From assembly GCA_038889235.1 (NCBI GenBank), contig JAWAHN010000002.1, forward strand, positions 74,356-106,355: 32,000 nucleotides of DNA, in the 5' to 3' direction. The stretch is from Candidatus Jordarchaeales archaeon (lineage in GTDB: Archaea; Asgardarchaeota; Jordiarchaeia; Jordiarchaeales; Freyrarchaeaceae). Position numbers and translations under genes: made by a program. Under the pieces are notes generated by a model, which searched no databases, was not told the origin of the DNA, and was given only the letters and a program-made list of their open reading frames with translations. Below, piece after piece: positions 20,223 through 20,614 of this stretch; position 1 is the first letter of the stretch; each line of letters begins with the position of its first letter.

Positions 20223-20230
20223 TTTTTAAC
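20223..20230 (+). promoter_or_regulatory. TATA box of the SRP RNA gene
   Basis: TTTTTAAC preceded by purine-rich GAAA (BRE-like). Placing it at -30..-23 puts +1 at 20253, the first base of helix 1. Confidence 0.65.
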
Positions 20231-20252
20231 TCCTTTTGCACCACCCAATATT

Positions 20253-20614
20253 GGGTGGTGGGTCTAGGCGGGCGGCTAGGGGTCGCCTGAGAGGGGGCTA
20301 AGCTCCCTCGACCGCAAATCCCCTAAATGGCGGGCCGAAAGCCGGCGTGAGGCGTCACTAACCCGCTGTCCTCCTCCACACCGAGGCTATGAAGACTCGT
20401 CCCGGAGGGCTGGCGGTGGCCGTCTGCCTTCCGTAGGGAGGGCGTGTTCGGCCTTCGCCGGGGGAACCTGGCCAGGCCCGGGAGAGCCCACCAATAGGGG
20501 GCACCGACGGAGCAACCTAACCTCGGACGTACAGCGCTTCCGGGGGAGCGGGTTTGAGACCAGGTGTGGAGGATGTGGCGGGAAGGTGGCGTCGATCGCC
20601 GGGACCCACCACCC
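20253..20614 (+). ncRNA. ffs: Signal recognition particle (7S) RNA with a helix-8 insertion and an extra Alu-domain hairpin
   Basis: Helix 1 GGGTGGTGGGTC/GACCCACCACCC; helix 3 loop TAGGGG pairs with helix 4 loop CCCCTA; long helix 5; helix 6 GCCTTCC-GTAG-GGAGGGC with a GNAR loop; helix 8 motifs GGCCAGG and AGCAACC. Confidence 0.96.
20485..20508 (+). other. Putative 24-nt BHB/BHL-type intron in SRP RNA helix 8
   Basis: 5' bulge AGA (20483-85), central helix CGGG/ACCG (3 of 4 Watson-Crick pairs), 3' bulge ACG (20507-09), inner stem GCCC/GGGC. Cutting after nt 2 of each bulge gives CAGG-CCC-GGGA-GGG-AGCA. Confidence 0.75.

Follow-up and report, generated by a model that had tools for sequence, protein, structure and literature searches.

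The SRP RNA gene of this Candidatus Jordarchaeales archaeon carries 24 extra nucleotides in the apex of helix 8, and with high confidence we propose that this insert is an archaeal BHB intron, which would be spliced out by the tRNA-splicing endonuclease EndA, the exons being joined by RtcB to give a helix 8 capped with a GNRA tetraloop. Few non-coding RNAs besides SRP RNA are universal, and within it few functional elements are as strongly conserved as the helix-8 tetraloop. As far as can be read from the gene, the SRP would very probably be functional only after the tRNA-splicing enzymes have cut and rejoined its RNA. BHB processing of SRP RNA is known in itself; what is new here is its form, a plain intron in a collinear gene.

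The gene lies at positions 20256-20611 of the window, that is, of the whole stretch of 32,000 nucleotides that was analysed, and all features described below are on the same forward (+) strand. It matches the archaeal SRP RNA model RF01857 with 142.2 bits, compared with a gathering score of 96.5 (cmscan), and helix 1 can be extended by 3 bp to 20253/20614. Model positions 1-317 are covered end to end in a collinear alignment, the GNAR loop is present, and CAGG and AGCA flank the insert, bearing out the preliminary description of this region as SRP RNA; being collinear with the model, the gene is not of the permuted Thermoproteus type. No other RNA gene is reported by cmscan in the window, and a tRNA search of the window found none. 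A TATA-like box, TTTTTAA (20223-20229), read directly from the sequence, is placed ~24-30 nt upstream of the start of helix 1, a position which fits archaeal promoter spacing. A perfect 20-nt palindrome, ACCACCCAATATTGGGTGGT (20240-20259), extends into the SRP RNA at its 5' end; the left arm, situated downstream of the TATA-like box and ahead of the likely start, is probably outside the transcript. The helix-6 GNAR tetraloop, GUAG, was located at 20433-20436 by the cmscan alignment; this loop is the tertiary partner of the helix-8 loop (Hainzl 2002, as far as it is cited in PMC4731332).

In the genome as a whole (a 2.14-Mb assembly, 95% complete, in 8 contigs) the gene at 20256-20611 is the sole SRP RNA match. 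The search for an uninterrupted helix-8 junction elsewhere in the genome, allowing up to 2 mismatches, found none, and one site on contig C1 that agrees with the helix-8 3' motif at 13/14 positions was rejected as SRP RNA by cmsearch. A second, uninterrupted SRP gene, which the preliminary description had named as grounds for abandoning the intron, is therefore absent from both the genome-wide RF01857 search and the junction search.

Extra bases with respect to RF01857 are found at two spots of the gene, between helices 3 and 4 (~21 nt) and at the apex of helix 8, where 30 nt stand against 6 in the consensus, i.e. 24 extra (cmscan). The alignment places the latter insert within the helix-8 GNRA loop, as had been claimed, and the coordinates first given for it are exact: 20473-20484 reads CAGGCCCGGGAG, 20485-20508 reads AGCCCACCAATAGGGGGCACCGAC (24 nt; AGCCC...CCGAC) and 20509-20514 reads GGAGCA. 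Both the cmscan alignment and direct reading of the sequence give an exon 1 at 20256-20484, ending in CAGGCCCGGGAG, and an exon 2 at 20509-20611, starting with GGAGCAACC. The 24 nt are extra relative both to the Rfam consensus and to the uninterrupted relatives, and their deletion yields CAGG-CCC-GGGA-GGG-AGCA, i.e. CAGGCCCGGGAGGGAGCA, which is present without interruption in G014, G016, G102, G020, G030, G040, G077 and G073. The predicted spliced product CCCGGGAGGGAGCA is likewise encoded by several uninterrupted genes, those of G014, G016, G102 and family f12. The boundary defined by homology is unique, as a shift of one base alters the product. Cutting after the second base of each bulge, which is the BHB cleavage rule, and joining the ends removes exactly this homology-defined insert, as had been anticipated, and leaves CCC-GGGA-GGG, the sequence of the intron-less relatives. 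Copies of the intron in tRNA genes or elsewhere in the genome, which would be a sign of mobility, were sought with blastn-short, and only the self match was found.

All the parts of the BHB that had been listed from the letters are present. The exon strand of the central helix, CGGG (20479-20482), is invariant in 18/18 intron-bearing genes, and in the mature RNA it corresponds to the closing C and the GGG of the GGGA tetraloop. It is followed by the first bulge, AG^A (20483-20485, the caret marking the predicted cut), with a 5' splice site predicted after G20484; the same AG^A occurs in all the relatives and in the Thermoproteus tenax substrate. The inner hairpin, GCCC-A-CC / AAUA / GG-GGGC (20486-20502), pairs 20486-20489 with 20499-20502 in a 4-bp stem (GCCC/GGGC), continues through an A bulge and 2 bp to an AAUA loop, and appears in the minimum free energy (MFE) fold. 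The intron strand of the central helix, ACCG (20503-20506), forms three Watson-Crick pairs and one G-A mismatch with 20479-20482, and the second bulge, AC^G (20507-20509), sets the predicted 3' splice site after C20508. There are consequently two 3-nt bulges on opposite strands with a 4-bp helix between them. In the strict hBHBh' form both flanking helices have at least 2 bp; here the inner helix is sound and the outer helix has in strict register the single Watson-Crick pair C20478:G20510, so that the insert is a relaxed BHB, the weakest within the SRP intron family. EndA enzymes of the heterotetrameric or epsilon2 type are the ones that cleave relaxed BHBs.

Taken by itself, the motif counts for little, because a loose scan matches by chance in any SRP RNA; such a scan of 50 SRP RNAs gave several matches per molecule, intron-less genes included, and was discarded as evidence. 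What carries weight is the coincidence of two independent definitions, the register of the motif given by the enzymatic cut rule and the insert boundaries given by homology. An insert was considered to pass when at least 3 of the 4 central pairs and at least 3 contiguous inner pairs were formed in the register set by the homology boundaries. Shuffles of the 24-nt insert form such an in-register BHB in 0.2% of cases. Over the family, 16 of the 17 distinct same-site inserts pass, the seventeenth failing solely by an A-C mismatch which is followed by 7 bp; none of the 17 passes when the 3' partner is slid out of register by -3 to +3, and in the same register test shuffled inserts average 0.19, with 3 as the highest value.

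The class sample comprised 11 genomes of Jordarchaeia, in which 9 SRP genes were found. All nine have an insert at the same junction (18, 18, 19, 24, 30, 31, 31, 31 and 32 nt), among them the gene of the closed 3.6-Mb Freyarchaeia chromosome G006 (CP147778.1), and no second SRP copy was seen alongside these nine genes, the closed chromosome included. RF01857 was also searched over a sample of 151 Asgard genomes, from which ~50 genes were read, nearly all the matches of at least 335 nt included. Same-site inserts occur in the Asgard families f15 (24-26 nt; records named Baldrarchaeota) and f20 (20 nt), and more than 30 other SRP genes among those read are uninterrupted. A pattern scan of 185,579 species genomes adds two Bathyarchaeia, one Thermoprotei MAG and one further archaeon, all confirmed by RF01857; since the pattern presupposed part of the BHB, these non-Asgard cases count for the distribution and are no independent test. 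In total 18 intron-bearing genes stand against more than 30 intron-less ones, with the structure maintained at the same site. The SRP genes of Jordarchaeia score ~108-146 bits against RF01857, compared with 183-193 for the uninterrupted genes of G016 and G014. Judged by SRP length and score, record JAPDJY010000035.1 (L067), titled 'Thermoproteota archaeon S9B3_HD70', holds the same gene as G004, which is grouped in the genome set with the window's own family (Jordarchaeia), so that the public label looks wrong.

The analysis of the changes occurring among the 18 intron-bearing genes demonstrates what is held constant. The length of the insert ranges over 18-39 nt, and its sequence and terminal loops vary freely. 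The intron strand of the central helix reads CCCG, CUCG, CUUG, CCUG, CCGG or, in this genome, ACCG, always in the same register; in the relatives CCCG, CUCG, CUUG and CCUG form 4/4 pairs with the exon strand, and 15 of the 17 other same-site introns have all four central pairs. The A at the position of the G-A mismatch is found in this genome alone among the 18. The second bulge of the relatives is A[ACU]^G, and the inner helix, wholly different in sequence between lineages, retains its pairing directly beside the bulge. The survey of relatives which the preliminary description had called for thus returns inserts of different lengths at the exact site, with the pairing to a fixed exon strand kept and an inner helix always paired; the contrary outcome that it had foreseen, a variation in length unrelated to the BHB sites, does not appear in the relatives.

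Other inserts were encountered in archaeal SRP RNAs. The extra bases between helices 3 and 4 of the present gene, a 21-nt insertion in cmscan, form an 8-bp hairpin, GAGGGGGC-UAA-GCUCCCUC (20291-20309), with GA on both flanks, which is separate from the intron. Hairpins of different sequence, covarying, occupy the same helix 3/4 site in all Jordarchaeia, in G018, in family f19 and in two Bathyarchaeia genes. Because it is devoid of bulges, the hairpin at 20291-20309 is probably a retained lineage-specific helix and not an intron. In the SRP RNAs of family f13 (L015, L018 and L042, from G031, G021 and G044) the loop of helix 3 contains an insert of 30-31 nt (RNA positions ~21-57) which can be parsed as a strict hBHBh', CUAG, GG^A ... 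CUAG, AA^C, the inner helix having 4-7 pairs and the outer helix 8, and whose excision restores GGGGGGCUAGGGCUCCCC; judged from its sequence, it represents a second, different SRP RNA intron site, in the Alu domain. Nearly the same helix-3 site is occupied in family f12 (L019, L020, L022, L043, L047 and L048; RNA ~20-60) by an insert of ~31 nt, GGCU, AG^A ... GGCU, AA^G, with a 5-bp inner helix and no outer pair in strict register (manual parse), which is probably a relaxed BHB intron. The SRP RNA of L029 (G033) has at ~197-230 an insert of ~31 nt which lies within the 5' strand of helix 8, immediately before an intact CCCGGAAGGG apex; no convincing BHB could be fitted to this insert.

The genome encodes two EndA-domain genes. 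EndA-1 (196 aa) is most similar to catalytic subunits from heterotetrameric crenarchaeal enzymes (A. pernix 3p1z_B, E 4e-47); its Tyr/His/Lys triad is kept, and the region of the crenarchaeal-specific loop aligns without gaps, with a Lys at the position that corresponds to K44 of A. pernix. EndA-2 (195 aa) has Ala at the position of the catalytic His and is probably the structural subunit. The subunit check that had been proposed therefore finds a two-subunit EndA of crenarchaeal type, and RtcB (600 bits) and SRP19 are encoded as well. Broad specificity of this EndA would be expected from its family; a putative relaxed-BHB-cutting endonuclease and the RtcB ligase are both encoded. Two separate EndA-domain genes (~190-220 aa) are found in ~140 of the 151 Asgard genomes, and as a rule members of the phylum seem to have a two-subunit splicing endonuclease of the crenarchaeal type. 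EndA type was for that reason rejected as a predictor of the SRP intron; it permits the intron without predicting it. ARAGORN finds only ~20 tRNA genes in this 95%-complete genome, half of them with introns, and one of its calls has an implausible intron of 1333 nt (third contig, 113954-115379). Such a result would be expected if multiple or non-canonical introns interrupted most of the tRNA genes.

The alternative of retention has to be weighed against splicing. The 24 nt could be kept as a lineage-specific extension of helix 8 (CCC/GGG, an internal loop and a small hairpin) in an SRP which works without the usual GNRA loop, and we regard this as improbable. The local MFE fold is indeed an alternative register of this extension type, at -28.8 kcal/mol compared with -23.3 kcal/mol for the BHB-constrained fold at 37 C, i.e. 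better by 5.5 kcal/mol, and the same RNA has another extra hairpin (20291-20309) which is apparently retained. The central helix is part of the MFE in 4 of the 18 homologues and the local fold does not exceed shuffled sequences in stability (z -0.55); the folding energies are neutral to mildly negative for the BHB and do not discriminate. The pattern of conservation does, however, speak against an extension, in which the exon halves of the tetraloop and their closing pairs would be without a role and yet are identical to the letter in the 18 genes. Only the exon-pairing positions and the bulges are constrained, and this in the splicing register alone, length, sequence and loops being free. The helix-6 GNAR loop and SRP19 are kept, and both need the helix-8 loop as a partner. 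Furthermore, T. tenax cuts and rejoins its SRP RNA at this same core (PMC4731332).

An EndA cut that is not followed by religation would leave the SRP RNA as two base-paired pieces of ~229 and 103 nt with an open tip of helix 8. Fragmented stable RNAs are known in archaea, and helices 5 and 8 could keep two such pieces together; the presence of RtcB in the genome and the exon ends, which keep a perfect GGGA loop, nevertheless make this outcome very improbable. We find it hardly credible that the gene is decaying or an assembly artefact, with the functional SRP RNA in the unassembled 5% of the genome. Such a gap exists, the 8 contigs being 95% complete, and in no other member of the family is the BHB as weak as in this copy, but the alignment is full-length with all the conserved motifs kept, and 9/9 SRP genes of the class, including that of the closed G006 (CP147778.1), have the same-site insert with no second copy.

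With splicing as the preferred explanation, the following pathway can be proposed. The single SRP RNA gene would give a 356-nt precursor in which the apex of helix 8 is split by the 24-nt intron and C20479-G20482 pair with intron positions 20503-20506, leaving the tetraloop unformed. A two-subunit EndA of the alpha2beta2 type would cut after G20484 and C20508, the second base of each bulge, and RtcB would ligate the exons to CCC-GGGA-GGG, capping helix 8 with its GNRA loop; the predicted exon-exon junction is CCCGGGAG followed directly by GGAGCAACC, which may also be written as GGCCCGGGAG followed by GGAGCAACC. On formation of the GGGA loop, SRP19 would dock helix 8 against the helix-6 GNAR loop, and SRP54, which needs the capped helix 8, could assemble. 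The excised 24-mer would be released, probably as a circle, whose junction would read CACCGAC followed by AGCCCACC. We infer that cleavage and ligation take place in vivo in the Jordarchaeales host and that the unspliced SRP RNA is inactive. A bolder version of this mechanism, which is speculative and which we hold to be rather unlikely, is that the intron is no passive passenger: by sequestering the tetraloop the BHB would block SRP19 and SRP54 until EndA and RtcB act, an obligatory and possibly regulated checkpoint tying the supply of SRP, and with it membrane and secretory targeting, to the state of tRNA splicing and RtcB repair, and this arrangement, occurring in Asgard, Bathyarchaeia and Thermoprotei, would be of sufficient age for the permuted Thermoproteus gene to descend directly from it.

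An internal helix-8 intron would make an essential process, protein targeting, dependent on the tRNA-splicing endonuclease and RtcB, and would add a further kind of substrate to a pathway known to act on tRNA, rRNA and a few mRNAs. It would further provide the 'simple intron' stage from which, as Plagens et al. (2015, PMC4731332) postulated, the permuted circular SRP RNA of Thermoproteus arose; this stage would be present in no fewer than two archaeal phyla. In practical terms, annotation pipelines and covariance models give intron-bearing SRP genes lower scores, and structural models of the Asgard SRP should take the spliced sequence. The intron is also a further instance of the unusual abundance of endonuclease-type introns in Asgard lineages. 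A literature search for an internal intron in SRP RNA found no report; its coverage was partial, so that this absence is no proof.

The closest known system is the permuted SRP RNA of T. tenax and T. uzoniensis, in which, as predicted here, tRNA-splicing enzymes process the RNA at the tip of helix 8. The T. tenax gene is permuted, and its leader and trailer form a BHB (Plagens 2015, eLife, PMC4731332). Recombinant heterotetrameric T. tenax EndA cuts this SRP BHB substrate specifically in vitro, ligated junction reads with a restored helix-8 loop occur in vivo, and binding of SRP19 and SRP54 is significantly impaired when the S-domain is unligated (PMC4731332). The 'open' S-domain ends in ...CCGGGAG and starts with GGAGCA..., and the BHB substrate is formed by CGGG/AG^A and CCCG/AA^G (supplement 1B, PMC4731332). 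The present insert has the identical junction, ...CCGGGAG^GGAGCA..., and the same core of CGGG plus AG^A with a CCCG-type strand, differing in the second bulge (AC^G here, AA^G in T. tenax), and the endonuclease is likewise of the heterotetramer type. A 'simple BHB intron' ancestor was only proposed, as plausible, by those authors (PMC4731332); the present gene is the simple-BHB-intron form that they postulated, in a different phylum. In Thermoproteus, by contrast, the gene is permuted, the BHB joins leader and trailer, and the entire SRP RNA becomes a circle on ligation; here the gene is collinear, the 24-nt intron enclosed by the BHB is internal, and the ligated RNA would be linear. The outer helix is also weaker here, with one Watson-Crick pair compared with two, and the central helix has a G-A mismatch.

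tRNA introns at non-canonical positions were reportedly described by Sugahara in 2008 and by Fujishima in 2010. The insert resembles those of Thermoproteales and of Freyarchaeia/Atabeyarchaeia, which are short (~12-60 nt) and of BHB or relaxed BHB form, and which are cut by broad-specificity EndA and ligated by RtcB in intron-crowded lineages; the same enzymes are predicted to act here. In Freyarchaeia/Atabeyarchaeia 92-95% of the tRNA genes are reported to bear introns (Valentin-Alvarado 2024, PMC11291895). The host of the present insert is, by contrast, SRP RNA, which is absent from those tRNA-intron papers (PMC11291895). A further likeness, again on the predicted pathway, is with the BHB introns of cbf5 and rRNA in Crenarchaeota, which are also non-tRNA substrates of the same endonuclease and ligase. 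Such introns are said to have been found in crenarchaeal cbf5 pre-mRNA and rRNA by Watanabe in 2002 and Yokobori in 2009. There they interrupt coding sequence or an rRNA helix, whereas here it is a universally conserved tertiary-contact loop of the RNA that is interrupted.
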